Assembly: GCA_949287655.1 (NCBI GenBank)
Contig: CASEHD010000006.1
Span: 9,126-73,125, forward strand
Source of the DNA: an uncultured Christensenella sp.
GTDB taxonomy: Bacteria > Bacillota > Clostridia > Christensenellales > UBA3700
Length of the DNA: 64,000 nucleotides
Reading direction: 5' to 3'
The position numbers and the translations under genes were made by a program. The notes beneath the pieces were generated by a model, which saw only the letters and a list, made by a program, of their open reading frames with translations, ran no database searches and was not told the origin of the DNA. Below, in pieces: positions 6,796 through 31,986 of the stretch; the stretch's first letter is position 1; the number at the start of each line of letters is the position of its first letter.

Positions 6796-6859
6796 AATCT
6801 TCGACTTAAGCCGAAAACTCTCCTTTCTTTTACGCGCTTACGCGCGCCAAGTCATTCAT

Positions 6860-6887
6860 ATTATACTATATTTTCAAGAGTTTGCAA
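6860..6887 (-). promoter_or_regulatory. sigma-A-type promoter for ktrBA
   Basis: Minus strand reads TTGCAA-16 nt-TATAAT. Confidence 0.5.
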
Positions 6888-7090
6888 ACTTTTTTTGCAG
6901 CCGCTCCTTTCCTACACCGTTTTTTTGCGCTTTTTTCCGTCTTTTTTACGCGTTTTTCGCAACACGTATTGAGTTATTCGCCTTTCTCTTTTTTTTGTTC
7001 TTTTTTCATTTTCTTTTTTTTCGGCGTTTATCGGCGCGGTTTTCGCCCCTTTTTCCGCATTATTTTAAGCCGTTTGCAAAAACTGATAAT

Positions 7091-8673: not shown

Positions 8674-10149
8674 TCACACGGGCAGACGTTCGTCGCCGCA
8701 GACTACGGTTTTGGTTTCTTCCGGCGCGGCTTCCGGCACAGGAGTCACCTTGCCGTCGTTGGGCACACCCTTCTTTTCGTAGACCAGTTTTATCGGATTA
8801 TCTGCGCCCGAACGCAAAGTTTTCTTTATCACCTTATGCATTATCACGAAATACGCAATCAGCAGGAAGACATCCGCGCCGACCCACGCCGACGGGCTTG
8901 AAAAACATACGCCGGTAAACCCGAACCACTTGGCGAGGAATATCGACGCGAGAGATCTCATCGCGAGCTCCGTCGCGCCGGCAATCATCGTCAGCGCGCT
9001 TCTGCCCATACCCTGCAAAGCGTTGCGGTAGACGAATATCGCCGCGAGCGCGATATAGAACACCCCCTGCCAGAGCAGAAATTCTTTGCTCATCGCGATT
9101 ATCTCGTCGGACGGGTCTTCCACGAAAAGTCCGGTCAGCGGCTTCGCGAGCGCAACGACGAAAACGAGACTGAATACCGCGCAGACTGCGCCCATGATCA
9201 TGCTCTGCGTAACGCCGTCCTTTATCCTCTTGAATTTGCCCGCGCCGTAATTCTGTCCCGCATACGTCGCGACCGCGGTGCCGAGAGCCGCCATGCTCTG
9301 CTGTGCGAGGTTATCTACCTTAGACGCCGCCGTATACGCGGTGACGACCCGGGTGCCCAGTTTGTTCAGCGCCGTCTGCTGCACCATCATACCTATCGCG
9401 GTTATCGAATATTGAAGAGCCATGGGCACGCCTATCGCCAGATGCTGCAGATAAAAAAGCGGCTTGTTCAGAAAATGCCGCGCCTTCACCCTGCAAACGG
9501 GGAACTTCACGAACATATATACGAAACACCCGATCGCCGAAAGCGCCTGCGACAGCACGGTCGCCCAGCCCGCGCCTTCGACGCCCGTACCCAATCCGAG
9601 TATGAACGCGAAATCGAACGCAACGTTGAGAAGCGCGGCGAGTATCAGGAACACGAGCGGGGTCTTGCTGTCGCCTAGCGCGCGCAGTATCGAAGAAGCA
9701 AGATTGTAAAACACGCTCGCCGCCAACCCCCAGTATATCGTCACTATGTAGTCGTAAGAATATCGGATTATGTCGTCGGGCGTCTGCATCAGCCTCAGAA
9801 GCGGCATCGTCGTGAATACGCTGATAAACGTGAGTATCACGGACAGCACGACGGAAAGAGCGACCGAACTGGCGACGCTTCTCTTTATTCCTTCCGTATC
9901 GCCCGCGCCGCAAAGCTGACTGGTCTTGACCGCAAAGCCTGCGGTAAGCCCCTGAACGAAACCTATCACCAGAAATGAAATGGCTCCGGTCGCGCCGACG
10001 CCGGCAAGCGCGGCGTCCGAAATCGTATGCCCGACGATGATCGCGTCGATCATGCTGTAAAGCTGTTGGAATACGTTGCCCACGAATATCGGCAACGTGA
10101 AAAACAAAATACTTTTGAACGGTCTCCCTACCGTCAGATCCTTAGTCAT
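8674..10149 (-). CDS. MATE-family efflux transporter
   Basis: N-terminus GRPFKSILFFTLPIFVGNVFQQLYSMIDAIIVGH and a 12-TM layout typical of MATE; GAGGG RBS; hydrophilic C-terminal tail. Confidence 0.85.
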   Translation of the reverse strand: MTKDLTVGRPFKSILFFTLPIFVGNVFQQLYSMIDAIIVGHTISDAALAGVGATGAISFLVIGFVQGLTAGFAVKTSQLCGAGDTEGIKRSVASSVALSVVLSVILTFISVFTTMPLLRLMQTPDDIIRYSYDYIVTIYWGLAASVFYNLASSILRALGDSKTPLVFLILAALLNVAFDFAFILGLGTGVEGAGWATVLSQALSAIGCFVYMFVKFPVCRVKARHFLNKPLFYLQHLAIGVPMALQYSITAIGMMVQQTALNKLGTRVVTAYTAASKVDNLAQQSMAALGTAVATYAGQNYGAGKFKRIKDGVTQSMIMGAVCAVFSLVFVVALAKPLTGLFVEDPSDEIIAMSKEFLLWQGVFYIALAAIFVYRNALQGMGRSALTMIAGATELAMRSLASIFLAKWFGFTGVCFSSPSAWVGADVFLLIAYFVIMHKVIKKTLRSGADNPIKLVYEKKGVPNDGKVTPVPEAAPEETKTVVCGDERLPV

Positions 10150-10642: not shown

Positions 10643-10921
10643 ATGCAAAACAATGAGAATTCAAAAAAGATTTACCCAAGCGCTCAGCTTGATTTTTCAA
10701 CCGGGATAACTCTGAACGGGATAACTGAGATCGTCTCGTCTTCGGACAAGACTTTCGTTGCCCGCGCGGGCGAGGAAGTGTTGACCGTTCAAGGCGAAAG
10801 ATTGAGACCCAAACTGATAGACATCGAAAAAAACACCGCCGTACTCGGCGGCAGAATATACGCCGTATCGAGCAGCAAACAATTAACGCCCAAAGGCTTT
10901 TTCGCGAAAATTTTCAAATAA
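10643..10921 (+). CDS. yabP: sporulation protein YabP
   Basis: GGAGG RBS 6 nt upstream; about 92 aa with the ITLNG...VSSSD...LTVQGERL...GRIYAVSS pattern of YabP; followed by a yabQ-like gene. Confidence 0.7.
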   Translation: MQNNENSKKIYPSAQLDFSTGITLNGITEIVSSSDKTFVARAGEEVLTVQGERLRPKLIDIEKNTAVLGGRIYAVSSSKQLTPKGFFAKIFK

Positions 10922-10922
10922 C

Positions 10923-11288
10923 GTGACAGAGCCCGGCTTGCAATTTTCAATACTCCTTTCCCTTTCCGGAACAGGTATTGCCGTCGGCGGCGTCCTGGCG
11001 GCGCTCGACTTTGCCGACAAATGCCTGGGCGGCAGACGGTTTTTACTTTTTTTATCGGAATTTACCGTCACGATCGCGGGAGGAGCTCTGATCTGGCTGG
11101 TCGTTCTCTTTATGAACGACGGCGTTTTCAGACTGTTTTTCATTCTGCCCACGGCGTTTTTTGCGGTATTTTGCTATATATGTATTCTGAAATTGCTATC
11201 CCCCCGCATCGAAAAGGCAAAATCTGCGCTGAAACGCTTCAAACGTACCCGCGCGGGCAGTTTTCTAGTCAAATATATTCTAAAATAA
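10923..11288 (+). CDS. yabQ: spore cortex biosynthesis protein YabQ-like membrane protein
   Basis: GTG start 1 nt after the yabP stop; small protein with 3-4 TM segments; conserved yabP-yabQ pairing. Confidence 0.6.
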   Translation: MTEPGLQFSILLSLSGTGIAVGGVLAALDFADKCLGGRRFLLFLSEFTVTIAGGALIWLVVLFMNDGVFRLFFILPTAFFAVFCYICILKLLSPRIEKAKSALKRFKRTRAGSFLVKYILK

Positions 11289-11512
11289 AGCATTTTAACC
11301 GTTTTTTATATATTTTTTACTCAAAATAATGCTAAAACCTAAATTTAATTTTTGATACTTTTCTCAACCTGTTTTTAGTTATTCCTACTTTCTTAAAGAT
11401 TATATATCTGTTAAAAATATCCGATTTGTCCTGTATTATCCGGTTTTAAGCTTCTTTATCCGACCGGCTTAAATAATTACGCGCGTAATATAGGATTTCC
11501 GGCTATTCCGTC

Positions 11513-12160
11513 TTGTGCCGCGCGTTTCCCCCTTTTCTTCCGCTTTTTCCCGGGTTTTCCTTTGTTTATCGGTCTTTCCGGGGTTTTTCTGAACTTTTCG
11601 CCTTTTTACCGGGTTTTTTGCTCAAAAAGCCTTTGTTTACCGATCTTTCAGCCGTTTTTGTCTGTTTCCCCCTTCTTTCCCGTGATTGCCGGTTTTTTTC
11701 GCCGAAACACCGATACAATCTTACTTTTCGAGATTTTACGCTCTTTCCTCCTCTTAGCGTTATCTTTCGGATGTTTTCGAGTGTTTCCGGGCGTTTACCT
11801 CTGTTTTACGCCCGTATATGCCTTTTTGCCCCTGTAAGCCGCTTTTCTCGCCTGTTTCCGCTTGTTTTTCCCTTTTCACGTTTTCACCTTGTTTTTCGGC
11901 GATTTTCCTCTCTTTCGACCTCTTTTCCTTATCTCCCATTCTTTACGGCTGTTTTTGCGGATTTTTCTCCTTTTCCCTTTAACCGTCGCCGCTTTCGCTG
12001 TCTTTAAGCGGTTTAACCCCTTCTCCGCCGATATTTCCTCTTTTTTCGACTTTTCCCGCCCGATTCCTCTATCCGGTTGCCTTTTCACCTTAAAACGGCT
12101 TTTAGAGCCTTATTTCTGCGTCTCTCCCGTTTTTCTCCTTTCCTTAGGCTTTTCGCGTTA
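11513..12160 (+). repeat. helically phased T-tract array (A-poor, T/C-rich on the plus strand)
   Basis: A run of at least 3 T occurs in 16 of the 18 consecutive 10-nt blocks from 11521 to 11700; 11521-11620 contains 50 T and 4 A; degenerate longer repeats such as cctttgtttaYcgRtctttc about 71 bp apart. Confidence 0.85.
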
Positions 12161-12170
12161 TATCGCATAT

Positions 12171-12198
12171 AAAAAGGGCGAAGCCGTCGCTTCGCCCT
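12171..12198 (-). terminator. intrinsic terminator downstream of the TrmH-family gene
   Basis: 10-bp stem agggcgaagc-cgtc-gcttcgccct with a T-run on the minus strand. Confidence 0.6.
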
Positions 12199-12342
12199 TG
12201 TATTTCGGCTGTTTTCACATATTTTTCACCTTTTTCGAGGAGAAACCCGAGACCGGATCTAAACGCGCCGCAGACGTTTATTTCACACCCGTAACGGCTT
12301 TTTCTTTCACGGATCGGCTTCCGCTTTTCTGTTAGAACAAGC

Positions 12343-13212
12343 CTACCTTTTCAGATAGCCTTTGTTTTTCAGACTTGCCTCGTAACATACGACCGTTGCC
12401 GCCACTCCGACGTTCAGAGAATCGCATTTGCCGAACATCGGTATCGAAAGCAGTTTTACGTCCTTATCGTACCAACCGCGCGATATTCCGTATCTTTCGC
12501 TTCCCATCACGAAAGCGCAGCGTTTGCCGTACGGATATTCGTAATAGCTCTTCTCTGCCCGGCTGTCCGTAAGATATATCTCAAAACCTCTCTTCGCCAG
12601 AGCGTCGTAGCATTCGTCGGCGTCCGCAAACTCGACGATCGGAATATTCAGAATGCTCCCCATACTGGATTGCAACAGTTTGGGATGCGTCATTCTGGCT
12701 TTACGGTTGCAGATAAACACCGCGTCCACTCCCGCGCCGTCCGCGACCCTTATCATCGTACCGACGTTTCCCGGAATCTCGACCCCGTCGAGGACCAACA
12801 CCACGCTTTTGTCGGTAAAGGAGATATCTCCCGCTTCCGACATCGAAAAATACGCGATACTCATCACCCCGTCAGGCTTTTCTCTCTCACTTATTTTTCC
12901 GAAAGTCCTGGCGCTTACGGTAAATCTCTGATCGCAGGCTTTCGCCATCTCTTCGACCAGTTTCGCCGCCTCTACGGTATAGACTTTTTCGGGACAGATA
13001 ATTATCGCATGAAGCGGAGAACACGCCTCTACGAGCATCTTGTTGAACCACAGCCCCTCCGCCACGTACTGCCTGGCCGGATTGGGTTTGGAGTTGGACG
13101 AGAGCGCCTTTATGTGCTTGACTATCGAATGGCTGTCTCCGACCGCATAAAACCTGTATCTTGCGGTAACGTCGGATATAATTTCCGCCGCCGCTTCGCG
13201 TTCGTTCTGCAT
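12343..13212 (-). CDS. TrmH/SpoU-family RNA 2'-O-methyltransferase
   Basis: ATG at 13212 with AGAGGTGA RBS; motifs LVLDGVEIPGNVGTMIRVADGAG, VMGSERYGIS and IPMFGKCDSLNVGVA match SpoU methylase motifs 1-3. Confidence 0.8.
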   Translation of the reverse strand: MQNEREAAAEIISDVTARYRFYAVGDSHSIVKHIKALSSNSKPNPARQYVAEGLWFNKMLVEACSPLHAIIICPEKVYTVEAAKLVEEMAKACDQRFTVSARTFGKISEREKPDGVMSIAYFSMSEAGDISFTDKSVVLVLDGVEIPGNVGTMIRVADGAGVDAVFICNRKARMTHPKLLQSSMGSILNIPIVEFADADECYDALAKRGFEIYLTDSRAEKSYYEYPYGKRCAFVMGSERYGISRGWYDKDVKLLSIPMFGKCDSLNVGVAATVVCYEASLKNKGYLKR

Positions 13213-13379
13213 TTCTTCACCTCTTTTATACTTACAAGATACCACACCCGCAGACTATATTCAAGCGTTTACCGCCCGCGCCGGATAAGACCCCCGAAAA
13301 GACTCTTAACAGCCGCCCCGAACTATGCCGCGCTATACGCCGGTAAACACCGTGCCGCCTTTACGCAAAAGATTCTTTA

Positions 13380-13990
13380 ATACCTCCCGGCGCAAGCCCG
13401 TCAAAGTCATCGAAGTTTTTGCAAAATCACCGAAAGCCGGCCCCGTGCAAAGTCTTCAACGCCCTCTAACACGTCGCGTTTAAGCTTTCGCAAAACAAAA
13501 AAAAGCACGATCTTCGACACAACGAAGAGCATCACCGAAGTCGCCGCAGTCCGGGTCCCCTCCGAAAGCTCTCCTTCAATCTTCAAAGCGGCATACCGAC
13601 TCGCTTGAAATCCGTCTTACGCAAGTACTTCGACGCCCATCGAATTAGCTTCCGTAAGCCCGCCGAGATCACGCTGCAGATCGAAAAACGATAAAATCAA
13701 CCCGCCGATTTATTTACGAAAAAAAATTTAACGAATTGCACAACTTCAAAAAAACACAAAACGGAGATACCGCCGGCGATAAACAACGGTTTCGATATCC
13801 GACGAAAGCCCGCAAAACACCGGCGGGATTGCAAACGTACGTTGAAAAAACAAGGCGCGCACGGCTGAAAAAGCAAAAGAGCAGGGAAGGACACGCCTTC
13901 TTTCAACAAAAAGGAATGATAAAATGATCGGTACAGAAAGTAACAGGCAAAAAGAAGCTTTCAAACCGCTGATTTGTCAACGAAATTCCG
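13380..13990 (-). repeat. A-tract-rich arm (T-tracts on the minus strand), left of the 14.0-14.24 kb centre
   Basis: Plus strand dominated by caaag / gcaaaa / cgaaag type A-runs; mirror image of the array to the right of 14250. Confidence 0.5.
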
Positions 13991-14032
13991 CAAAAAGGGT
14001 TAGCAATCGGATTTTGATAATTAATTGTAATA

Positions 14033-14059
14033 AATGTTTCACAAAACCTGTGAAACATT
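14033..14059. promoter_or_regulatory. split parS-like palindrome
   Basis: aatgtttcac-aaaacct-gtgaaacatt: both parS half-sites (TGTTTCAC / GTGAAACA) separated by 7 bp. Confidence 0.4.
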
Positions 14060-14217
14060 GGCAAAAATTTTTTTGTTTTTGAAAAAATAAGCCGATTTTT
14101 GTCTATAAAATTATAACCGGATTTTATGGTAAATCAGACGGTTTTGATAAATATGGTTTATATTATACTCATATATGTTATATTTTAGCATATTTTCGGC
14201 TGGATTTTGTCGAAAAT

Positions 14218-14233
14218 TGTTCCGCGTGAAACT
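14218..14233. promoter_or_regulatory. parS-like site (14/16 match)
   Basis: tgttccgcgtgaaact versus Firmicute parS TGTTNCACGTGAAACA. Confidence 0.45.
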
Positions 14234-14249
14234 TTTTAAAATCGCAAGT

Positions 14250-15650
14250 GACAACGAGTTTGCCAAGGCGCTCAAAAGCCCCCTCTTTTTGCCATGAACA
14301 ACCGCCTCTCCGGCGCAACGCCTCTCGCCGACACTTTATACTGAACGCGTTTTCCGAAAACTCGCCTCAGCGCGACTCCCGGCACTTTTTCCGAATATTC
14401 GTTTCCGCGCCTCGCGCCGATAAGGAATTCGAAAACCTCTCTCTGCTCGTACTATCGTCGGCGGGCAGAGCAACGCCCGTGCAACCAAAACTCTATTTAG
14501 ACGTTCTTTACGCGTTTGCGCTTTTTGCGCTTTTTCTACTGTTTTATAAATTGCATATTATCCGTCTTTATTTCGGCTGCGTCAACGTTGACGTTAAATC
14601 TCCGATCGTTCGTTGCGCGTGTACGCGCTCTTTTTTTGTTTCCTACGTTAAAGCCGAAACCGTCACGATCTTTTTGCAAAACGCTTGCGGCTCGATGCCC
14701 TGACGATTTTGCGCTTATACCGTTATCCTGTAAAATCAGACCTCAAGCGGCATCAATGCATATTTTTTCAAATCGCCTTTATTTATACTTTTTATGCTTT
14801 TTCCTCTGTGTATCACTATACGTTATATATTAACTCTTTCGTTACGCTCTTTTCATTGGTCGGATCCTTTTATCCCCTTAGTCTTTGCGCTTATTTTCTT
14901 ATTCTTTGCTTGTTTGATCAACTTCACCCTCTATATGCTCGCGCAAGGCGTTTTTATCAAGCCGACGGGCTTTGCCCTTAACGACAGGCGAAAGAACGGC
15001 TCAAAATGCTTTTTACACGGTCCGCCGGCTGCGTTTCGATATTCTGCGTTTAAGACAAAGGTTGTTTCTTGTTTTGCACAACCTCGTCGTCTCCTACGAC
15101 GTGCCCGATAAAGATCTGACGTCCTTGTGTCAGCTCTCGCATTGCACCTGCGTTTGTATTGACAGCTCGCCTCTCGCGGAAGAGTAGCCTTATACTTCTT
15201 TCGTCACTTCTTTTGATTGTTACGCCGGCTTTATTCTCGACGGGACTCGCGGCGCTTTTTCACGCGATTTTCTTTATGTTTCACATGAAACAAAGCTTTT
15301 TTTGCGTTTTTGCTTTGTTTTTTCTATTAAATATTCTCGCTCTGTCCTTATCAATGAATTTTGTTTCCGATTTTGCAATTCTTACTTTTGTCTGATGTTC
15401 TTTGCCTCCGGTTTTACTTTGCCGTGCTTTTATTGCGAAATTTAAACGGCTTAAAAATAAATGCGACATGCCGGAACTGTCTCGCGCTCTCCGGATATTT
15501 GACTCTCAAACGGCAGGAGAGGGCGGCTTTCCTTATCCCGTTTCCGGTTTACGCCGTCTTCTTCTTTGTAATCTCTTTCAGAATATTTGCGCTTTACCGT
15601 TTTTTTATGCTCTCGATTTTATTTTGATAATGCCTTTTAATTGCTCTATG
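14250..15650 (+). repeat. T-tract-rich, A-poor array (plus strand)
   Basis: Recurrent cttttt / gttttt runs roughly once per 10 bp; all three plus-strand frames stay open for long stretches because stop codons are rare. Confidence 0.65.
15277..15292. promoter_or_regulatory. parS-like site (15/16 match)
   Basis: tgtttcacatgaaaca versus TGTTTCACGTGAAACA. Confidence 0.55.
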
Positions 15651-15989
15651 TAGCGCGAAGCGTGAAAAATTTCTAAAATTGCACTTGTATGCCTTCTGTG
15701 AAGCTTTTTAAGCCGATACGACCTTCTTTTGCCTTTTTATCGGTATTTTCTCGCGCATACCGACAAAGTATATATCCGTATAACGCCGTTTATCGGCAGC
15801 TTCCTTTCTTTATCTTACTCCCGACAAACAGATGTTGGTTCTATATCCGTGTTATGCCGCAAGCGCTCGGACTTTTCAGACATTATCAAACGGCTCCCGG
15901 TTGTTATACCGTCAAATCTACAAATATCGCGGTAACATTAAACCTTATTACGCTTTAAATCGACCCGTAATCGCCGCACCCGCCGATCT

Positions 15990-16800
15990 TTAAAGCCCGA
16001 TCCGGACTTACGACGACCGCAGCTAATACTTTGCGTATAAAAAGCCGTTACGGCTGGCGTACATTAACGATCTTTTCGTTGCTACAACCGTTATTCGTTC
16101 TCAGAATCGGAAAAGAGCGTTTTCACCAAAGCTTCGGACAATCTGCCAAAGGTCGACGATCGGCAAAAGAGCGCTTAAAGCGAAAACGAACAGCACGCAA
16201 AAGCCGTCTGAAATGATAGCCTCATACCGCAAACGCCCCGGATCGTCCGCGTATATTGAAGGGAATACGCATTTAGCGACATAAAACAATCGCGAGCACA
16301 AAGAAATCGGAAACCGGAACGCCAAAACGCCGGCTTGCTTACAAAAAAGTTGTCGCCCGGTCGTCGAAATATTCTTGCCCGAACATCGACTCACGATTTT
16401 TACGCCGTTCAGACAAAGACCTTCCTTTGAACGTACCGGCAGGTAATTACAACGCCACGGTCATTACCTAAGGAGGCAAAAGTCGACGAATAACACCGGA
16501 ATAATATAGAGAGCCGGCGAATTACGTAAGCCGCGGCACAATAAGCCGGCGTTCTTGTCCGTAACGCCCCGCGACAAACTACGCCTTTTTACCGATTGCG
16601 CATAGGGCAGAGCGAAACATCGCGATCGTCATTCTACATACAGAGGAAAAAGATAGCAGAGCAAGGATTAGCGTAAAAAGTAATCGCGTTTAACGATAAG
16701 CGCGTCGACTTACCTCCGGATCTCCGATACGTCCTCATAATGCCGATCAATAACAGGGCAGCGCCCGTCGTTATGAACGGTTTTTCTTTATAAATCAAAA
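15990..16800 (-). repeat. A-tract-rich arm (T-tracts on the minus strand), left of the DnaA-box cluster
   Basis: Plus strand rich in gaaaag / gcaaaag / cgaaaac runs; polarity opposite to 14250-15650 and 17440-18100. Confidence 0.5.
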
Positions 16801-16816
16801 CAGAATTGTTCAGATT

Positions 16817-17245
16817 TGTGGATAAAATCGCGATACAGGGCATTTTAAACGCCGTTTTACTTATCCGGTCGTCAATTTTGTTTTCAAAGTTTTTTCTGTT
16901 TGAGTTATCCGCATAAACGGTCTTTACCGTATTCTCGCGGCAAGTCTGGCATTGTTGTTGATAAACGTTTATATACTGACCGTTAAGTTTCGCTTTTTGT
17001 CTTCCGCACCTTCCGGGTCGCGGGCAAATTTTGAAACTTTAACCGCTTAAACCGTTATACCCGCGCAATATTGCTTTTACCAATGTGGATAACTTATTTG
17101 AAACGAACGGAAAAGTGCCACATTTTTATCAAGTTTTCGACATTCTTTGATAAATTCGTTAATTTCCGCTATTCCCGACGGTCGTTGTAGATAACTTAAT
17201 TCAAAAACTGTTTCATGTGAAACTTTTTCGAAACCGTTATCCACA
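16817..17245. promoter_or_regulatory. DnaA-box cluster upstream of rpmH with no adjacent dnaA
   Basis: Perfect boxes tgtggataa (16817-16825, 17084-17092) and ttatccaca (17237-17245). One-mismatch boxes ttatccgca (16905-16913), tgttgataa (16956-16964) and tgtagataa (17186-17194). Confidence 0.8.
17209..17224. promoter_or_regulatory. parS-like site (14/16 match) inside the DnaA-box cluster
   Basis: tgtttcatgtgaaact. Confidence 0.4.
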
Positions 17246-17439
17246 ACGCCGTTTAAAGGTCTTTTTTCGTTTTTATACCTGTGTTTCCCTTAAAAAGCGG
17301 TTGTGATTCGGCGAATTTCCGGCATTATTCCGGGTTTGCTTCGTCCGATCGGGAGTTCTTTAAAGAGACAATGCCCCTCGGCTTACCGCGATACGGTTCG
17401 TCTAAGCCTTCTTTTCGTCAAAAAGCAGAAAAGAGCAGG

Positions 17440-18100
17440 CATATTTTGCCCGGTAAACACAACCCGAGACGCCTATATTACACATATTATTTCTTTTTTT
17501 CTGACTTTCGAACTTCTTATACTTTTCGATATTTTCTTTCTTGTCATTTTCTTAAATATCGCGCTGCTTTTTGACTTTACCGCTTTTATTCGCGCACTTT
17601 TGTCCGCTTCGCCTTTATTTACAATTATGAAAACGCAAGAGATGAGAGCTCTTTGCCTTTTATCGCGTTTTCGAGTCGTTTTTTCCTCTTATACTTGTAT
17701 TTTTTATTTGCTGCCCGTTAAAATTACCGTAAAATCACCCGATTCTATGCTAAAAAGGTTTGAAGACATGATTTTATCTTTTTTCGTCCTTGATTTGTTT
17801 ATAAAGGCAAAACAGCCTGATCTGCAACATTTTGCCTGTTAATCGGCATATTATTTTCGTTTTTTGACTTATCCGCATGCTTATCTGCAACGCAATAAAA
17901 ATGCGCCGCCTTTTCCGGTCTGGACTCTGTGTGAACTACATGTCTTCCGCATTTAATACACGTTTGTCCGTCAATATTTCTCTTGTTGCTAATATATCTA
18001 TTGGTTATACGCGCCTTTTTCATGTCCCTTTTTTATTATTTGTTCTGCATTTTCCGTTATCTTTATTCTTTTAATTTTCCCGGACTTTCGGAAACCGGAA
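17440..18100 (+). repeat. T-tract-rich, A-poor array (plus strand)
   Basis: ttcttttttt ctgactttcg aacttcttat acttttcgat attttctttc ... pattern; right arm of the DnaA-box centre. Confidence 0.6.
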
Positions 18101-18712
18101 GAAACCGCATAACCGGCTTTTTATTATTCGTATCCGCATCGGACGGCAAAATGCCGCGATCATCATTTTTAGCGATATTTTTAATAAATCGGTTGCAAAA
18201 CAAATCGTCCGTCATGCAGAACAAGGGAAAAGGGTATCGGCGGAAACAAATAATTGCGAAAAGCCTCGGCTTACTTTTTCTCTTGCCGCTCGGGTCGCTG
18301 TGTGGCTGTCGTACAAGCTTTGCGAATTGTAAAAGGTTCTGATAGATTATGAGAGCCTGAATTTGATTTTGCCGCTTTTTGTAAAACAATTCGACCCGCT
18401 GATTGACAAATCGGTAAGAGTGACCGTAATCGTAAAATATACCGCGACGACAAACTTTTAAACCCGTCATCGTCTCAGGTCGGCAGGATATTATTTTCCC
18501 GGCGAAACAAGTGCGGATTTTCGCGGCGATCATGGTCTCAGGGCACGGGCAGCGATCGGCCGGCTTTGCAAAAAGCCCCGGCTCTTCGCCCTGCGGACAG
18601 AAGCGGACGACAGCGATCGCGAAAACCGGGAGAGTATCCTCTCAGACGGACGTGCCGGCGCGTCTTCTCATGCGCACGCGTTTACAATTTCGTTTATACA
18701 AAGTAAAAATCC

Positions 18713-18742
18713 TTGACACGCCTTCTTTATTTATATTATAAT
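18713..18742 (+). promoter_or_regulatory. sigma-A-type promoter for the rpmH operon
   Basis: TTGACA-18 nt-TATAAT, about 105 nt upstream of rpmH. Confidence 0.6.
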
Positions 18743-18848
18743 ACATTCGCTATTGTGGAAAACAGTTCGCTTTTCGCGCTCTTTTTTCCGCGCCGCACCC
18801 GTTTGCGGAAGCTGTATAACGACAATACTAAAAAGAGAGGATAGATTT

Positions 18849-18983
18849 ATGAAAAGAACGTTCCAACCCAAGAAACGCCAGCGCAGCAAAGTGCACGGTT
18901 TCAGAAAGAGAATGAGTTCTACCGGCGGCAGAAACGTCATCAAGAGACGCAGAAACAAAGGCAGAAAGCATCTCAGCGCGTAA
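18849..18983 (+). CDS. rpmH: 50S ribosomal protein L34
   Basis: [44 protein letters not shown]; GAGAGGA RBS. Confidence 0.97.
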
Positions 18984-21404: not shown

Positions 21405-21433
21405 GGCGTACCTGAAAAGGTACGCCTTTTTTT
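21405..21433 (+). terminator. intrinsic terminator after jag
   Basis: ggcgtacc-tgaaaa-ggtacgcc followed by ttttttt. Confidence 0.8.
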
Positions 21434-21482
21434 GTTGAAATTTTTATCGTTATATTTTATACTTATAAATATAGGGGATATC

Positions 21483-21905
21483 ATGAGAGAATCTTTCGAC
21501 GCGTTTATCAGTTACAGAAGAAATACGGGAAGTACTCTCGCCAACAGGATCTACGACTTTTTTGTTTCGCGAAGAATAACCCTTCCTTCTCTTTGCTCAG
21601 AAGACAAACTGGGTTACCTTGCTACTATCGTTGTATCTGAAAAATATCGCGGCAACGGTCTTGCAACCGCTCTTATCAATAAAGTGACCCGTTTATTCGC
21701 CAAAATGAATATCTCACATATCATTACCACCGCTTGGAAACATATAGGAAAAATCAATCTTCAAGGCGTTCTCATACGCTGCGGTTATAAAAAAATAACT
21801 GAGATCCCGGATTATTGGTACGAAGACAGTATAAAAAAGGGATACTCTTGTCCACAATGCGGAAATCCTTGTCATTGTTCGTGCGTAATATTTGAAAAAT
21901 TCTGA
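21483..21905 (+). CDS. chimeric ORF: TIR-type N-terminal fragment fused to the C-terminal two thirds of a GNAT acetyltransferase (possible pseudogene)
   Basis: MRESFDAFISYRRNTGSTLANRIYDFF resembles the first strand and helix of a TIR domain. From LGYLATIVVSEKYRGNGLATALI onward it is GNAT motif A, followed by a CPQCGNPCHC tail. AT-rich islet. Confidence 0.5.
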   Translation: MRESFDAFISYRRNTGSTLANRIYDFFVSRRITLPSLCSEDKLGYLATIVVSEKYRGNGLATALINKVTRLFAKMNISHIITTAWKHIGKINLQGVLIRCGYKKITEIPDYWYEDSIKKGYSCPQCGNPCHCSCVIFEKF

Positions 21906-22109: not shown

Positions 22110-23441
22110 TTATTTTCCCAGGCAGAACTTTGAGAAGATCGCGTTGACGATACTTTCGTCCGCGGTGTTTCCCGTTATCTCTCCCAGCGCGGAGTATGCG
22201 TCGCGCATATCGACCAAGAGACATTCCGCCGGCTCTTCGTCAAAGCTTTCTTTCGCCTGCGTAAGGCTGAAATGCGCGCGTTTTAAAGCGTCGTAATGGC
22301 GGCTGTCCGTCACGATGTTGCCTGAAAGATCCACGTCGCCGCCTATAACGCAGTCGATTATCGCCTTCTTTATCTTGTCTATCCCTTCGCCCGTCTTTGC
22401 GCTGACGAAAATGCCCTTTCTGTCGTCCTTTGCGTGCGGCATATCGTCCTTGTTGTATACGCGTATTACCTTTGCGCCTTCGACCGATCTCAATATGTTT
22501 TCCTCTTCGTCCGTCGGCTTTCTGCCCGCTTCGGTTATGAACAGCACTACGTCGCTGTTTTTTGCGATCGCGCGGCTTCTGTCCACGCCCAGCTTTTCGA
22601 CCTTATCGTCCGTCTCTCGTATGCCCGCGGTGTCGATAAGGTTGACAGTTATCCCGTCCACCTCGAGGCGCTCCTCTAAGCTGTCTCTGGTCGTACCAGC
22701 TATTTCAGTGACTATCGCCCTGTCTTTACCGGTCAACGCGTTCAGGGTAGAGGACTTGCCGACGTTGGCTATGCCCACTATCGCGACGTCTATTCCTTGC
22801 TTTACATAGCTTCCTGTCTTTGCGGTCGAAAGCAGTTTTTCCAGCTCTTTGCACAATTCGTTTACCGTGTCTTTCGCAACGCGGCGGCTCTCTTCTTCCA
22901 TCTCCTCGGGGTAGTCGAGCGCAGCTTCCATCGTCGCTATCGCGTCCAGCAGTTTTTCTTCAAACGCGTATATCTGCTTTGACAGATTCCCGGTCATCGA
23001 GCGGTAAGACGCTTTAAGCTGCGCCTCGCTTTCTGCGTTTATCATCTCAATAACCGCTTCTGCGTCGCTGAGCGCCAGTTTGCCGTTCAGAAACGCGCGT
23101 TTAGTAAATTCACCCTTGTCCGCGGCGCGCGCGCCAGCCTCGATACAGCCCTTCAATATCTCGTTTACAAGCCTTACTCCGCCGTGACAATGTATCTCAA
23201 AAATATCTTCGCCCGTGTAGGTTTTCGGCGCTTTAAAGTATACTCCCAGACATCTGTCCGACACCTCTCCCGCAGTCGCCGTGCCGTAATACATCATATT
23301 GGGAACGGCGTAAGAAAGGTCGGCGAGTTTGCTTGTATGAAAAACCTTCGCCGCCACCATAAGCGCGTCGTCTCCGCTTATTCTTACTATTCCTATCGCG
23401 CCCGCTCCGACCGGAGTGGATATCGCCGCTATCGTCTGCAT
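22110..23441 (-). CDS. mnmE: tRNA modification GTPase MnmE
   Basis: 443 aa; G-domain GIANVGKSSTLN and DTAGIRET; C-terminal CLGK. Confidence 0.95.
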   Translation of the reverse strand: MQTIAAISTPVGAGAIGIVRISGDDALMVAAKVFHTSKLADLSYAVPNMMYYGTATAGEVSDRCLGVYFKAPKTYTGEDIFEIHCHGGVRLVNEILKGCIEAGARAADKGEFTKRAFLNGKLALSDAEAVIEMINAESEAQLKASYRSMTGNLSKQIYAFEEKLLDAIATMEAALDYPEEMEEESRRVAKDTVNELCKELEKLLSTAKTGSYVKQGIDVAIVGIANVGKSSTLNALTGKDRAIVTEIAGTTRDSLEERLEVDGITVNLIDTAGIRETDDKVEKLGVDRSRAIAKNSDVVLFITEAGRKPTDEEENILRSVEGAKVIRVYNKDDMPHAKDDRKGIFVSAKTGEGIDKIKKAIIDCVIGGDVDLSGNIVTDSRHYDALKRAHFSLTQAKESFDEEPAECLLVDMRDAYSALGEITGNTADESIVNAIFSKFCLGK

Positions 23442-23496
23442 CTTTTATCTCCGCAAAGCTTTTTAACGCTTATAATATATCACACGCGCGCGGCGA

Positions 23497-23525
23497 TTGC
23501 AAATAAAAGCGCGTTGTGCTATAAT
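23497..23525 (+). promoter_or_regulatory. sigma-A-type promoter upstream of mnmG
   Basis: TTGCAA-17 nt-TATAAT. Confidence 0.5.
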
Positions 23526-23725
23526 TGAGCGTAACCGGACGGACGGCTTTTCTTTACTTAATGATAAAGGTATCGGATAAAAAGGACAATATATACGCGT
23601 TCTTCCGGTAAAAGCCGCGGTTCGGTCGGGCGGAAATTACGCTTTAAGCATAACGGCGACATATAAGAACATAGCGGACAAAAACGTACTTGGCGGGCAG
23701 GAAAACGCCCTTAAAAAGAGGTATA

Positions 23726-25594
23726 ATGCAGAGAAGATTCGACGAAATTTACGACGCGGTAGTGATAGGCGCGGGGCATGCGGGAGTTGAAGCGTGCCTT
23801 GCTCTTTCGCGCCTCGGTCTCAAAACTCTCGTCGTCACGCTCTCTCTCGACGCTATATCCTTTATGGCTTGCAATCCCGCGATCGGAGGCACAGCGAAAG
23901 GGCACCTCGTACGCGAAGTGGACGCCCTCGGCGGACAGATGGGCATAAGCGCGGATCACAACCTTCTTCAGATAAGAATGCTTAATACCGGCAAGGGCGC
24001 GGCTGTTCAAAGCCTCAGAGGTCAGGCGGATAAATCAGAGTACCATTTATATATGAAACGCGTGCTTGAACGCGAAAAAAACCTTACCGTCCTGCAAGGG
24101 GAAGTCTCTCATATACTCACCGAAAACGGCAAGGTGGTCGGCGTTACTACGCTGCAAGGTCAGACCTTCGCCTGCAAAGGGGTCGTCGTCGCGACCGGCG
24201 TATATCTGAACGCGGATATAATAATCGGCGAATTCCGTCAAAAGACGGGTCCCAACGGTTTCTGCCGCGCGACCGCGCTCACTCAATGCCTTCTCGATAT
24301 GGGCATACCCACCCGCCGTTTTAAGACGGGCACCCCCGCCAGAGTGGATAAGAAGACTATAAATTTCGACGCCATGACGATCCAAAGCGGCGACGAAAAG
24401 CTGTATCCTTTCTCCTTTATGACCGACGGATTTATCGAGAACAAGGAGCCGTGTTACCTCACTTATACGACCGAAGAGACAAAGAAAATAATCATGGCGA
24501 ACATCGACCGCTCTCCGCTGTATAACGGCAGCATAAAGAGCACGGGCCCCCGTTACTGTCCGTCCATCGAGGACAAAGTGATGCGCTTTGCGGATAAGGA
24601 AAGACATCAGATATTTATTGAGCCTGAAAGCGCTTCAACCGACGAAATGTATGTGCAGGGAATGAGCAGTTCTCTCCCGGTAGACGTGCAGATAGCGATG
24701 TACCGTTCTGTTATCGGTCTTGAAAAATGCCGTCTTATGCGGTACGCTTACGCAATTGAATACGACTGCATAGATTCGACCTCTCTCTATCCGTCGCTTA
24801 TGACAAAGCGCGTGGACGGACTGTTTATGGCAGGACAGCTCAACGGCAGCAGCGGCTACGAAGAAGCGGCGGCGCAGGGCATAATGGCCGGTATAAACTG
24901 CGCGAGATATATCACAGACAAAGCGCCCGTTATTCTGGGCAGAGAGAGTTCTTACATAGGCGTTCTTATCGACGATCTCGTCACAAAGGGCACCAACGAG
25001 CCTTACCGCATGATGACCGCGCGCGCAGAACACCGCCTTAATTTAAGACAGGAAAACGCGGACGAAAGACTTACCCCGATCGGCAGAGAAGTCGGGCTCG
25101 TAAGCGATGAAAGATACGCGCGTTACCTCGGCAAGATGAATTCGCTTAAAGAGATAAACAAAGCTCTCGAAAGAAGCGTTTCTCCGTCAATTTCCGCGCC
25201 CCTTTTTGCTGAGACAGGCGACTATGTGCCGCACACAGGAATGTCGTTGAGAGAGATTTTAAAGCGTTCGGGCGTGACCGCGGAGCTTCTCGTAAAGTAT
25301 TTTCCCGAACTCGGAAAATTTAATATCCGTTATCTCAAAGAGGTCGCGACTGTCGCTAAATACGAAGGGTATCTTTCAAAGCAGATGTCCGCGATAGAGC
25401 GCACTAAAAAACTGGAAGATAAGGCGCTTCCCGATGACGCGGACTATCTTTCGATAGAGGGTCTCAGACTGGAAGCAAGGCAGAAACTAAATAAGATCCG
25501 CCCGTTAAATCTCGGGCAGGCATCGAGGATATCCGGCGTTTCTCCCGCAGATATCACCGTTCTTATGGTATGGCTGGCAAGGAGGGGAAAATAA
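23726..25594 (+). CDS. mnmG: tRNA uridine 5-carboxymethylaminomethyl modification enzyme MnmG (GidA)
   Basis: YDAVVIGAGHAGVEA FAD motif; about 622 aa; AGAGG RBS before the ATG at 23726. Confidence 0.95.
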   Translation: MQRRFDEIYDAVVIGAGHAGVEACLALSRLGLKTLVVTLSLDAISFMACNPAIGGTAKGHLVREVDALGGQMGISADHNLLQIRMLNTGKGAAVQSLRGQADKSEYHLYMKRVLEREKNLTVLQGEVSHILTENGKVVGVTTLQGQTFACKGVVVATGVYLNADIIIGEFRQKTGPNGFCRATALTQCLLDMGIPTRRFKTGTPARVDKKTINFDAMTIQSGDEKLYPFSFMTDGFIENKEPCYLTYTTEETKKIIMANIDRSPLYNGSIKSTGPRYCPSIEDKVMRFADKERHQIFIEPESASTDEMYVQGMSSSLPVDVQIAMYRSVIGLEKCRLMRYAYAIEYDCIDSTSLYPSLMTKRVDGLFMAGQLNGSSGYEEAAAQGIMAGINCARYITDKAPVILGRESSYIGVLIDDLVTKGTNEPYRMMTARAEHRLNLRQENADERLTPIGREVGLVSDERYARYLGKMNSLKEINKALERSVSPSISAPLFAETGDYVPHTGMSLREILKRSGVTAELLVKYFPELGKFNIRYLKEVATVAKYEGYLSKQMSAIERTKKLEDKALPDDADYLSIEGLRLEARQKLNKIRPLNLGQASRISGVSPADITVLMVWLARRGK

Positions 25595-27409: not shown

Positions 27410-28279
27410 ATGGCTAAAAAATCGGAAGACCGTTCAACTATCGATCTCGCTATTAAGCTGGCAAGCGACGATACTAAAGACGAAACCGTTACTCAGATCG
27501 AATCAAAACTGATAGACACCAATCCCAATCAACCCAGAAAGCATTTCGACGAAGAAAGTCTTAACGAGCTGGCTGTAAGCATTAAAAACTACGGCGTAAT
27601 ACAACCCATTCTCGTTTGCCCGAAGGAAGGCGGAAGATACGAACTTATCGCCGGCGAGAGAAGGTTAAGGGCGAGCAAGATGGCGGGGCTTTCTTTTATC
27701 CCCGCGATAGTAAAGAAATTTACAGAATCGGAAATGGCGGAGATCGCACTTATCGAGAACTTGCAGAGAGAGGATCTCAACCCGATAGAAGAGGCGAGGG
27801 CGTACCGCTCGCTGATGGAAAAATATGGTTTCACGCAGGAAGAACTTGCGGACAAGCTGGGCAAGTCAAGACCGGTAATCGCTAACAGCCTGAGACTTTT
27901 ATCTCTTAACCCTGTCGTCGTAGAGATGGTTGAGACTAACAGACTTTCGGCAGGACATGCAAGATGCCTCGCCTCGATAAAGGATATGGGAGTACAGGCG
28001 ACCTACGCGCTCGCCGCTTGCGACAAACAGCTTTCGGTAAGACAGCTTGAAAATATGGTCAGGGCATACTTAAAACCGGGCAAACAACCCAAGACCCCTA
28101 AAAAGGCGTTTATTTCTCCTGAGCTAAAAGAGCTTGTAAACAACATGCAGCGCACTTTCGGCACTAAGGTTAAGGCTGTCGGCAACAACGAAAAAGGCAG
28201 AATCTTTATAGATTATTATACAAAAGACGACCTTATCAGAATTTACGAGCTTATAGACTCTTTGTCAGAGCAGGAGTAA
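27410..28279 (+). CDS. parB: ParB/Spo0J/Noc-family chromosome partitioning protein
   Basis: GVIQPILV, LIAGERRLRAS and IALIENLQREDLNPIEEA motifs plus an HTH; no parA/soj gene adjacent. Confidence 0.9.
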   Translation: MAKKSEDRSTIDLAIKLASDDTKDETVTQIESKLIDTNPNQPRKHFDEESLNELAVSIKNYGVIQPILVCPKEGGRYELIAGERRLRASKMAGLSFIPAIVKKFTESEMAEIALIENLQREDLNPIEEARAYRSLMEKYGFTQEELADKLGKSRPVIANSLRLLSLNPVVVEMVETNRLSAGHARCLASIKDMGVQATYALAACDKQLSVRQLENMVRAYLKPGKQPKTPKKAFISPELKELVNNMQRTFGTKVKAVGNNEKGRIFIDYYTKDDLIRIYELIDSLSEQE

Positions 28280-28435: not shown

Positions 28436-28442
28436 TAATTTT

Positions 28443-30401: not shown

Positions 30402-30434
30402 ATGTCCTCCACGCCCTTTTTTACTCAAGGGCTA

Positions 30435-30606
30435 ATTATTACGTATTTAATTTTAATAAATCGATAATAAAAATCTTAATAAGGGATGTGGATATGTGGA
30501 TAAGATTTTTTTAAAGCTTTTTATCCTCACATATTAAGATTTTTTTATCCATATACACGTTTGGAAAAGCTGTTGATAAAACCGAAAAGTTTTCCACTTA
30601 TCCAAA
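30435..30606. promoter_or_regulatory. dnaA-dnaN intergenic DnaA-box cluster with an AT-rich unwinding-type segment (candidate oriC core)
   Basis: Boxes: tgtggatat (30487-30495), tgtggataa (30495-30503, perfect), ttatcctca (30521-30529), ttatccata (30545-30553), tgttgataa (30571-30579) and ttatccaaa (30598-30606). The 30435-30485 segment is almost pure A/T, with TAA TAA AAA TCT TAA TAA abutting GGG and the tandem boxes. Confidence 0.75.
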
Positions 30607-30615
30607 CGGCGCGGT

Positions 30616-31986
30616 TTATTTTTTCTGTATCATCGCCTTTATGTCGTTTACCTGCGCCTGAATGAGCTTGTCTGATTTACAAAGGCTGGTTATCTTATCG
30701 CGGGCGTACATGACCGTCGTGTGGTCCTTGCCGAAATAAGAAGCGATACTTGTCAGGGGCAGACCGAGTATGTCGTTTATAAGATAAATAGCGATCTGCC
30801 TTGCGAGAGCGATATTCTTCATCTTCTTCTTACCGACTATATCGGCGCGCTTTATGTTGTAATAAGTGCATGTAGCGTCCACGATATTATCGATTGATAT
30901 GACGTGGGTAGAGACGTTGATATAATCTTTCAGCGCCTCTCTGGCGGTATCTATGTCGCAAACCTCTTTTTTTTCGAGAGAGCAGAAGAAAAAGACTTTT
31001 GAAAGAGCGCCTTCAAGTTCTCTTACGTTTGAAGAGATATTTTCGGCGATAAAGAATAACACGTCGTTACTTACGCTGAATTTTTTGAGTTCGGCTTTCT
31101 TTTTCAGGATTGCGACTCTTGTCTCTACCGACGGGTTGGTTATATCGACGGTAAGACCGCATTGAAATCTCGATTGAAGTCTTTCTTCGATAAAAGTAAG
31201 TTCTTTGGGATGGCGGTCGCTCGAAAGCACGATCTGTTTTTTGTTCTGATACAGGTCGTTGAATGTATGGAACAACGCTTCCTGAGAGCTCATTTTACTC
31301 GAAAGAAACTGCACGTCGTCTATCATAAGGACGTCGGCGTTGCGGTACTTTTCGCGGAAACTCTTATTGAGTTTATTGTCGCTTATCTTTGAAGCCTGTC
31401 TTGAAGGAGACAGGGAATCTATAAATTCGTTGACGAACTGTTCGCTCGTAACGTAAAGTATTTTCTTTGTTTTGTCTACTGAATGAATATAGTTGCCGAT
31501 AGCGTGCAGAATATGAGTTTTGCCTAAACCTACTCCGCCGTAAATAAAGAGGGGGTTATAGAGTACGCCCGGGTTTTCCGCGACCGCTTTCGCCGCGCTT
31601 GACGCGATGTTGTTGCAGTCGCCGACGACAAAATTGTCGAATGTATAAGAGGGATTTAATATATATTTGAAATCGTCCTCTTCCGTCTTTGTTTCTGCGG
31701 GTTGAAAGGTCTCTTTTTCAGGTTTGTAATTTTTTGCTTCTTCTTCCGTAATAACGATGATATCGGTCACGTAAGAGCCCGATTTTTCAATGGCGTCCCT
31801 GACAACGGTATTCTTAAAGCCGTCCACGGTCTTTTTGACGGAGACGAGCGGGGCGACCATTATCAGTTTATTGTTTTCTATCGTAAGAGGGACCAGTTTA
31901 CCGAACCACATCTCATAGCTTACGGTAGACATCGCCGCTTCGATATAAGAAGAAATATCTTTCCAGATTTTTACGCTTTCGTTCAT
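30616..31986 (-). CDS. dnaA: chromosomal replication initiator protein DnaA
   Basis: 456 aa; Walker A GGVGLGKTHIL, AAA+ sensor motifs, C-terminal DnaA-box-binding domain ...DHTTVMYA. Confidence 0.97.
   Translation of the reverse strand: MNESVKIWKDISSYIEAAMSTVSYEMWFGKLVPLTIENNKLIMVAPLVSVKKTVDGFKNTVVRDAIEKSGSYVTDIIVITEEEAKNYKPEKETFQPAETKTEEDDFKYILNPSYTFDNFVVGDCNNIASSAAKAVAENPGVLYNPLFIYGGVGLGKTHILHAIGNYIHSVDKTKKILYVTSEQFVNEFIDSLSPSRQASKISDNKLNKSFREKYRNADVLMIDDVQFLSSKMSSQEALFHTFNDLYQNKKQIVLSSDRHPKELTFIEERLQSRFQCGLTVDITNPSVETRVAILKKKAELKKFSVSNDVLFFIAENISSNVRELEGALSKVFFFCSLEKKEVCDIDTAREALKDYINVSTHVISIDNIVDATCTYYNIKRADIVGKKKMKNIALARQIAIYLINDILGLPLTSIASYFGKDHTTVMYARDKITSLCKSDKLIQAQVNDIKAMIQKK

Follow-up and report, generated by a model that had tools for sequence, protein, structure and literature searches.

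What function does a dense cluster of DnaA boxes have when it lies on the rpmH side of an origin region, and dnaA itself is located 13.4 kb away? This question is raised by a stretch of 64,000 nt from an uncultured Christensenella sp. (GenBank assembly GCA_949287655.1, contig CASEHD010000006.1, forward-strand positions 9,126 to 73,125; this whole stretch is called the window in the following), which carries such a cluster, together with a parS-like site, at positions 16817-17245. With moderate confidence, we regard the cluster as an accessory, putative DnaA-binding region, similar to oriC1 of other Firmicutes or to non-origin DnaA-box clusters, that would be merged with a parS centromere, with DNA unwinding taking place elsewhere. 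An accessory role is considered most likely because the unwinding origin appears to be 13 kb away, between dnaA and dnaN.

DnaA boxes were searched as TTATCCACA with up to one mismatch on both strands of the whole window, which resulted in 30 matches, compared to 8.0 expected, and 30 or more matches were not reached in any of 100 shuffles. Within 16817-17245, three perfect and three one-mismatch boxes are distributed over both strands, as the initial annotation had described, and its expectation of a density above chance holds in the window. The maximum number of boxes per 430 bp is six, whereas never more than four were reached in 800 first-order Markov simulations of 64 kb that were based on whole-window or local non-coding composition, and the four perfect boxes of the window (three in the cluster, one in the dnaA-dnaN spacer) compare with 0.22-0.24 simulated per 64 kb. 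A weighted scan with two mismatches allowed detected two clusters in the window, 16817-17245 and 30401-30900, and no third one. By these results, the cluster is real and non-random. It had been described as being next to rpmH, but its end lies 1603 bp upstream of that gene (18849-18983); the distance to dnaA had been given correctly as about 13 kb, and Pfam confirmed dnaA at 30616-31986 on the opposite strand.

For comparison, 80 loci were taken from species-representative genomes with Jag as query (individual loci are numbered with L below). The closest ones have 80-86% Jag identity and come from metagenome-assembled genomes labelled Christensenellaceae or Christensenella. The boxes in and near the cluster are:

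16817..16825, minus strand: perfect DnaA box, lineage-specific, without positional counterpart in L003-L005
16905..16913, plus strand: one-mismatch DnaA box TTATCCGCA, extended flank repeated at 17854-17878 (repeat family D5)
16956..16964, minus strand: one-mismatch DnaA box TTATCAACA from the box scan
17084..17092, minus strand: perfect DnaA box, 20-nt context repeated at 17186-17205 (D9) and inverted at 17226-17245 (I6)
17134..17142, plus strand: two-mismatch DnaA box TTTTCGACA, overlaps the Spo0A-box-like 7-mer TTCGACA at 17136-17142
17186..17194, minus strand: one-mismatch DnaA box TTATCTACA, left box of the module described below, perfect in L003, L004 and L005
17237..17245, plus strand: perfect DnaA box, right box of the module, at +28 from the parS start, kept in L004 and L005
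17869..17877, plus strand: outlying one-mismatch DnaA box TTATCCGCA from the box scan and repeat search

The most conserved part of this element is its coupling to parS. The parS-like site had been seen in the initial annotation, where it figured merely among the further motifs. A scan for the 16-bp palindrome TGTTNCACGTGAAACA with mismatches allowed gave five matches in the window when both strands are counted, compared to 0.09 expected, and these correspond to three sites, which are listed here together with a conserved motif of the module:

14218..14233: parS-like site 1, TGTTCCGCGTGAAACT, two mismatches, conserved in L003 and L004
15277..15292: parS-like site 2, TGTTTCACATGAAACA, one mismatch, with counterparts in L003, L004 and L005
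17171..17181: conserved motif ATTCCCGACGG of unassigned role, in the module, ATT.CC.....G in 4/4 aligned sequences
17209..17224: parS-like site 3, TGTTTCATGTGAAACT, two mismatches to TGTTNCACGTGAAACA, centre of the module

Around site 3, a near-symmetric module is formed by a DnaA box TGTGGATAA, 14 bp, parS, 12 bp, and a DnaA box TTATCCACA. The parS sequence of this module is identical in the window, L003, L004 and L005, though the flanking DNA is otherwise unalignable, and it has DnaA boxes at both offsets, -24 and +28, in L004 and L005, whereas L003 retains only the one at -24. For the remaining four boxes of the cluster, no counterpart at a like position is present in close relatives. When the spacer is aligned to these relatives at the nucleotide level, the only parts recovered are the rpmH promoter, the block around site 1, and one 75-bp match to L005 that extends over parS site 3 and its two flanking boxes. 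Because the offsets of -24 and +28 persist while the 5.6-kb spacer is unalignable at 80-86% Jag identity, the box-parS-box core appears to be under selection. Two conserved motifs precede the module in alignment A1, ATTCCCGnCGG and TTCGACA. The latter, which is the complement of TGTCGAA and had been annotated correctly at 17136-17142, is kept in L004 and L005 and reads TTCAACA in L003; as a Spo0A-box 7-mer, TGTCGAA shows no enrichment, with 13 copies in the window compared to 11.5 expected. Module and rpmH are separated by 1.2 kb in L004, by 1.6 kb in the window, by 3.4 kb in L003 and, with an open reading frame (ORF) of 1073 aa in between, by 5.4 kb in L005. As the core distance thus varies from 1.2 to 5.4 kb and an ORF is inserted in L005, the cluster is not tied to rpmH. 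In L001, an 1853-aa ORF precedes rpmH, and neither a box nor a parS is present within 8 kb; related loci mostly carry two to four parS-like sites, all of them upstream of rpmH.

Is the neighborhood of DnaA boxes and parS restricted to this module? Of the 108 parS-like sites in all loci, 20 are accompanied by a box at a distance of up to about 70 bp, compared to 8.4% expected (binomial P = 7e-4, for sites that are not phylogenetically independent). In L011, L012, L014 and L020, boxes are positioned about 54 bp left and about 63 bp right of parS, with a tandem box pair on the left side in L012 and L020; L010 has boxes at -43 and +40, and L008 has only the right-hand box beside parS. In L023, L025 and L027, a box is placed between closely spaced parS sites (parS-box-parS). 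The full-module pattern had no match in metagenome contigs; a shorter pattern, parS site 3 plus one box, was found in seven metagenome contigs from other taxa (L081-L087), which contain two to eight, mostly six to eight, parS-like sites per contig, with perfect DnaA boxes in between. Next to the arrays of L081 and L085, there are gyrA and gyrB on the minus strand and dnaA on the plus strand. These sequences suggest that composite parS/DnaA-box regions may be widespread.

Two further observations concern such sites. In most of L081-L087, three to five perfect boxes are arranged in dense arrays within about 1 kb (e.g. L083 478-1141, L085 4090-4658). In the window, parS site 1 lies in a block of about 200 bp (14030-14237) whose nucleotide sequence is shared with L003, L004 and L008, and that also contains TGTCGAA at 14208-14214 and a “split parS” inverted repeat at 14034-14058 (ATGTTTCAC, 7 bp, GTGAAACAT); positions 14095-14194 are among the least stable 100-mers of the window.

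If the cluster is accessory, where would the DNA be unwound? The second cluster near dnaA, which had also been noted initially, comprises one perfect and five one-mismatch boxes at 30487-30606, and the following features are found there:

30402..30615, minus strand: dnaA-dnaN spacer, probable core origin (equivalent to oriC2 / incC)
30436..30486, minus strand: trio-like array (TCCC spacer, TTA TTA AGA TTT TTA TTA), then an AT-rich unwinding element
30487..30503, minus strand: tandem DnaA boxes TTATCCACAtATCCACA, facing the trio array

In the direction from dnaA to dnaN, the tandem boxes are followed by TCCC, the array, about 50 bp of AT-rich DNA, and then the dnaN ribosome-binding site. Triplets were counted as YTA, which is the complement of the 3'-[G/A]AT-5' DnaA-trio. 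Four of six triplets at the tandem boxes are YTA, which was equalled by 14 of 20000 random positions, the next 60 nt are 80% AT, and the 60-mer 30436-30495 ranks 47 of 63941 for duplex instability. The core aligns across 12 genomes (A3) with invariant TTATTA and ATTATC, and the majority-rule consensus of the array in these genomes is TTA TTA nGA TTA TTA TTA. A cluster of four or more boxes is present in the dnaA-dnaN spacer of 11 of 14 related loci; an rpmH-side cluster of this size is found only in the window and L024. No DnaA-trio array was found at the seven boxes of 16817-17877, where the best score is one YTA of six with NTN runs of at most two; the 60 nt downstream of each of these boxes are 52-63% AT, and the 60-mers near the cluster reach at best rank 1362 of 63941 for instability. 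A basal unwinding system consists of at least three DnaA-trios not more than 16 bp away from a DnaA box (PMC8287927). The dnaA-dnaN core matches this published system and also the experimentally mapped C. difficile unwinding site in oriC2 (PMC7561715), whereas the boxes of 16817-17877 lack both the trios and the adjoining AT-rich region. The unwinding site is therefore most likely the conserved dnaA-dnaN module.

Other intergenic regions within the plateau of the skew were considered as origins and rejected. The divergent mnmE-mnmG spacer (23442-23689) has no boxes and is not AT-rich, and the parB-dnaN spacer (28280-29285) is AT-rich but has no box with up to one mismatch. The latter spacer has a GC content of 0.33, accounts for four of the 12 60-mers with the lowest stability in the window, and reaches its length of 1.0-2.3 kb in the closest relatives of the window only.

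The arrangement of the genes, as called by Pfam searches and direct reading of the sequence, is as follows:

8674-10149, minus strand: MatE gene (Pfam)
10643-11288, plus strand: YabP-like and YabQ-like weak matches, under the Pfam cut-offs
12343-13245, minus strand: SpoU-type methyltransferase (Pfam)
13246-18848: spacer of 5.6 kb with no detectable gene, three parS-like sites and the DnaA-box cluster
18713..18742, plus strand: rpmH promoter (TTGACA, 18-bp spacer, TATAAT; 12/12 matches)
18754..18762, minus strand: weak one-mismatch DnaA box TTTTCCACA (TGTGGAAAA on the plus strand)
18849..18983, plus strand: rpmH, first gene of rpmH-rnpA-yidD-yidC-jag (placed by direct reading)
to 21389, plus strand: rnpA, yidD, yidC and jag (Pfam)
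21432-21905, plus strand: GNAT gene
22110-23441, minus strand: mnmE
23690-26295, plus strand: mnmG and rsmG
26298-27038, minus strand: TIR-domain gene (TIR_2, ThsB_TIR), GC content 0.33, between rsmG and parB
27410..28279, plus strand: parB, without neighboring parA (Pfam ParB_N, HTH_ParB, ParB_C)
29286-30401, minus strand: dnaN (Pfam)
30616..31986, minus strand: dnaA (Pfam)
32053-33141, minus strand: recF-like gene
from 33389, plus strand: gyrB and gyrA

In this arrangement, rpmH and dnaA are oriented towards each other, and the rpmH-to-parB block separates them. The initial annotation had considered that two halves of an origin were separated by a rearrangement. Synteny speaks against a recent event of this kind. 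The order rpmH...jag, mnmE, mnmG, rsmG, parB on the plus strand, and dnaN and dnaA on the minus strand is found in 14 related Christensenellales loci, and since it is shared at Jag identities as low as 40%, the separation of rpmH and dnaA is an old, lineage-wide trait. The canonical order gyrA-gyrB-recF-dnaN-dnaA-[boxes]-rpmH is present in 15 loci, mostly labelled Lachnospiraceae, Roseburia or Eubacterium. As these canonical relatives carry a box cluster between dnaA and rpmH, it had been reasonable to address the cluster as the counterpart of the dnaA-upstream half of oriC, except that it does not lie directly upstream of dnaA here. Remnants of dnaA or dnaN in the spacer, by which a rearrangement could be dated, were not detected (tblastn, E no better than 0.26). 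In six loci (L055, L059, L064, L071, L072, L077), dnaN is directly upstream of rpmH, and many loci have no dnaA within 8 kb.

Beside these findings, the six loci with dnaN upstream of rpmH share the order rsmG on the minus strand, DnaA-box cluster, dnaN and rpmH on the plus strand, and no dnaA was detected between dnaN and rpmH; the box cluster was flagged in five of them, with none in L059. In the window, L006 and L013, the recF-like gene upstream of dnaA has the minus-strand orientation, and in most other relatives among L006 and L008-L020 it is encoded on the plus strand and runs divergently from dnaA; this small gene flips repeatedly beside the origin. Copies of the TIR-domain gene were found by tblastn in L001 and L002 at 46-52% identity and not in L003-L005; it is probably a mobile anti-phage defence gene that resides in the origin region.

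Base composition modestly favors forks that diverge near dnaA-dnaN over forks that diverge at 17 kb. With 500-bp windows and a coding-strand covariate, the best GC-skew change-point is at about 29 kb, with a residual sum of squares of 0.693 compared to 0.87 at 17 kb. The best change-point of purine excess is at 30522 when all segments are used, and a switch at 16.8-17.2 kb is about 4 log-likelihood units (lnL) worse. The 750 bp to the right of the cluster keep the composition of the left arm (GC skew -0.14, AT skew -0.27). In 18 genomes of this layout, the coding-strand GC skew is +0.11 for the minus-strand mnmE and about 0 for the plus-strand genes of the block, and that of dnaN exceeds that of dnaA by 0.06. 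Strand composition places the switch between leading and lagging strand at about 23-33 kb. Third-codon-position GC skew was dropped as origin locator, as it does not separate mnmE from plus-strand genes in the window or in 18 relatives; the main influence on this skew is codon usage (C3 > G3 on the coding strand). Non-coding skew beside the module in relatives was rejected as inconsistent. In L024, 3 kb of non-coding DNA right of the rpmH-side cluster (4688-7825) have a GC skew of -0.355, which implies a strand asymmetry proper to this DNA, so that it cannot serve as a clean indicator of replication. Upstream of rpmH in L007 (5001-8000), GC skew is -0.25 to -0.30, and the rpmH-upstream skews of L024 and L007 far exceed the replication-associated skew of those genomes. 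With a dnaA-dnaN origin, only mnmE (22110-23441) would be co-directional with replication in the block, and this gene is inverted relative to its neighbors in 18 related genomes. A head-on orientation of the rpmH-to-parB genes is unusual for a Firmicute.

How does this arrangement compare with known systems? The oriC of Firmicutes is bipartite in B. subtilis and C. difficile and consists of oriC1 (rpmH-dnaA, incA/incB) and oriC2 (dnaA-dnaN, incC); in C. difficile, unwinding occurs at oriC2, and both halves are required for melting in vitro (PMC7561715). Such origins are usually described as fixed in rnpA-rpmH-dnaA-dnaN, with clusters that loop out dnaA only (PMC7561715). As in these origins, there are two box clusters in the window, only the dnaA-dnaN one of which has tandem boxes, a trio array and an AT-rich element, and the other cluster is on the rpmH side, as in the 15 canonical relatives. 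The differences are that the cluster is 13.4 kb away from dnaA, with convergent rpmH and dnaA and the rpmH-to-parB block between them, that it has no dnaA promoter, that it is interwoven with parS, and that this layout is order-wide. A comparable non-origin DnaA-box cluster is datA of E. coli. The cluster of the window resembles datA and the non-origin clusters of B. subtilis in having intergenic consensus boxes near but outside the unwinding origin, and it differs in having parS inside the cluster at a conserved spacing and no flanking genes to regulate. The B. subtilis clusters (Ishikawa 2007, PMC2533591; Okumura 2012, PMC3245932) restrain initiation, and their loss is synthetically severe with the loss of Spo0J (ParB) (PMC3245932).

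Related systems have been described in other bacteria. In Caulobacter crescentus, according to Mera 2014 as reviewed in PMC6399470, there are DnaA boxes in the parS region, several kb from the origin as in the window, and a link between DnaA and partitioning has been proposed; compared with what is described there, the window represents another phylum, has two boxes symmetric about one parS at 12-14 bp, and has no adjacent parA. In P. aeruginosa, oriCII, upstream of gidA, works via the promoter of the gidAB-parAB operon (PMC13438810). It is likewise a second box cluster a few kb from the main origin, in an rpmH/gidA/par neighborhood and with a link to ParB, but in the window no promoter or gene adjoins the boxes. 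At the crosstalk of ParB2 and rctA on V. cholerae chromosome II, for which the mechanism was shown experimentally (PMC3688505), a partition site and initiator sites are also found together near the origin and were shown to influence each other; the initiator there is RctB, not DnaA, and the chromosome is a secondary one. Our literature search on replication origins found no Christensenella paper among the matches listed, and no description of a parS flanked by DnaA boxes in Firmicutes. The ingredients, i.e. accessory box clusters, bipartite origins and centromeric DnaA boxes, are known, and what is new is their combination and the order-wide displaced layout.

By analogy to these precedents, DnaA and ParB would bind at the cluster, with titration of DnaA and a coupling of the two. 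The cluster may be the counterpart, in this lineage, of the rpmH-side (oriC1 / incAB-type) cluster of other Firmicutes. In this order, dnaA and dnaN, with the probable unwinding module, are placed about 13 kb off in Christensenellales, beyond the rpmH-to-parB block, and the rpmH-side cluster shares a spacer without detectable genes with the three parS-like sites of the chromosome. DnaA might occupy the boxes throughout the cell cycle, in which case the cluster could act as an origin-proximal sink or regulator of free DnaA, like the DnaA-box clusters of B. subtilis. As the boxes are only 12-14 bp away from a ParB loading site, the occupancies by DnaA and ParB would influence each other at the module, and the initiation potential would thereby be coupled to the loading of ParB and condensin at the centromere, as reported from the parS region of Caulobacter. 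Such a link between initiator and partition has so far been documented mainly via Soj/Spo0J genetics and in Caulobacter, and the box-parS-box core is a testable candidate for a direct coupling of the initiator to partition and condensin loading in Firmicutes. An abundant gut order with clusters about 13 kb apart moreover represents a natural experiment on the in-cis need for the rpmH-side cluster, and origin predictors that rely on box counts or on rpmH adjacency could choose the wrong locus here.

Several points weigh against this reading. Gene by gene, the GC-skew optimum is broad (23.5-29.3 kb), with both clusters within 2-4 lnL, and when only genes are used, purine excess is no more than 1.9 lnL against 17 kb. 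Replication from dnaA-dnaN would meet rpmH-rnpA-yidD-yidC-jag and mnmG-rsmG-parB head-on, and an origin at 17 kb would render these operons co-directional. The number of boxes varies in close relatives, with none within 8 kb of rpmH in L001, two in L005 and four in L004, and an essential role of the full cluster therefore fits poorly. As melting of C. difficile DNA needs both halves (PMC7561715), a purely accessory role cannot simply be assumed. Of the three readings offered by the initial annotation, that of an orphan DnaA-binding or regulatory site is the best supported one.

A more specific and unlikely, though conceivable, version is that the module is a DnaA-gated ParB loading site, at which flanking DnaA would act as roadblock for ParB clamps, and ParB would occlude DnaA. 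In this case, the level of active DnaA would set the timing of ParB and condensin spreading from the centromere. There would then be an order of gut Clostridia with a naturally “split” origin, whose unwinding half remained at dnaA-dnaN and whose DnaA-sensing half was recruited to segregation 13 kb away, and the arrays of the unrelated contigs L081-L087 would point to a widespread, so far undescribed coupling of initiation and segregation.

What alternatives exist for an accessory cluster at the centromere? They are taken in the order split bipartite origin, origin or second origin, transcriptional operator, and chance or relic. A split bipartite origin, which we consider improbable, would imply that DnaA at 16.8-17.25 kb bridges to the dnaA-dnaN spacer, thereby forming a loop of about 13 kb in place of the usual 1.4-kb dnaA, and that this contact is needed for efficient unwinding at 30.44-30.49 kb; folding by ParB and condensin might assist. 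The rpmH-side cluster is the dnaA-upstream half in the canonical relatives, and it is the only candidate for an oriC1 partner, if one is needed, as there are no boxes in the 66 bp between dnaA and the upstream recF-like gene, nor upstream of dnaA in relatives. The requirement of both halves for in vitro melting in C. difficile (PMC7561715) fits as well, and parS sites beside the cluster could in principle join distant DNA. However, the loop would exceed that of every bipartite origin described so far about 10-fold, close relatives such as L001 and L005 do without the cluster or keep only a small part of it, the distance of the cluster to rpmH varies with inserted genes, and oriC2 of H. pylori alone was unwound in vitro (as mentioned in PMC7561715).

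The cluster could also be an origin or second origin itself, with boxes between dnaA and dnaN that mainly regulate dnaA and dnaN. To this we give little credence, and it is the least supported of the three initial readings, as there is no trio array or marked AT-rich element beside any box of the cluster, and composition is modestly against it. The cluster has more perfect boxes than the dnaA-dnaN spacer (three compared to one), genes change from mostly minus to mostly plus strand across 13-19 kb, whereby the rpmH and mnmG-parB operons would become co-directional, and there is a secondary GC-skew optimum at about 18-18.8 kb. L024 has a six-box cluster (five perfect) upstream of rpmH that adjoins about 120 bp of almost pure AT, but the strongly negative non-coding skew right of that cluster implies that there is no switch point. 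In the window, the left-arm composition continues for 750 bp beyond the cluster, purine excess is about 4 lnL against a switch at this position, and number and position of the boxes are poorly kept in close relatives, whereas the dnaA-dnaN core is conserved order-wide.

A third possibility, which appears very unlikely, is that DnaA acts at the cluster as regulator of an unannotated spacer transcript, or of the rpmH operon from afar. DnaA is a known transcription factor, the oriCII boxes of P. aeruginosa regulate gidAB-parAB (PMC13438810), and some B. subtilis DnaA-box clusters regulate adjacent genes (PMC3245932). In addition, there is a further weak box, conserved and apart from the cluster, that overlaps with the start of the rpmH transcript. 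This box (18754-18762) is positioned 12 nt downstream of the -10 element within a block upstream of rpmH that is conserved in L001-L005 (18705-18848), L003, L004 and L005 have a one-mismatch box at the same offset (about -93 to -95 relative to the start of rpmH), and the box of the window may be a DnaA operator of the rpmH operon. The cluster itself lacks such a context: no promoter-like site was found within or adjoining 16.8-17.3 kb, the whole spacer has six compared to 8.8 in shuffles, and relatives differ in the distance to rpmH (1.2 to 5.4 kb), L005 having an additional gene in between. The spacer (13246-18848) has no conserved ORF or known RNA, as Pfam had no match for the six of its ORFs that were tested (69-179 aa), tblastx against five closely related loci gave no frame-specific conservation and multi-frame matches at motif islands only, and Rfam had no hit. 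Spacers of 2.9-6.4 kb are also present in L003, L004 and L007. An origin from a mobile element was considered as well and rejected, as 16500-18700 resembles no plasmid or phage record.

The cluster could finally be due to chance, with box-like 9-mers piled up in AT-rich non-coding DNA, or be a functionless relic in decay. This reading would agree with the four of six boxes that have no positional counterpart in close relatives, but is strongly disfavored and extremely improbable, as simulations with spacer composition never reach six boxes per 430 bp and yield 0.22 perfect boxes per 64 kb, and as the two boxes that flank parS are fixed in their offset within otherwise unalignable DNA.

Some minor observations were made outside the spacer. 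The non-coding region 11289-12342 is strongly pyrimidine-rich, with a purine excess of -0.37, an AT skew down to -0.65 and CTTTTC-like low complexity, and a similar region is present in L003 and L004. A ylbH-leader match on the minus strand (12092-12207) is below threshold, with 30.8 bits compared to a gathering score of 50. On the plus strand at 48532-48663, there is a flavin mononucleotide (FMN) riboswitch (RF00050, 68.2 bits).

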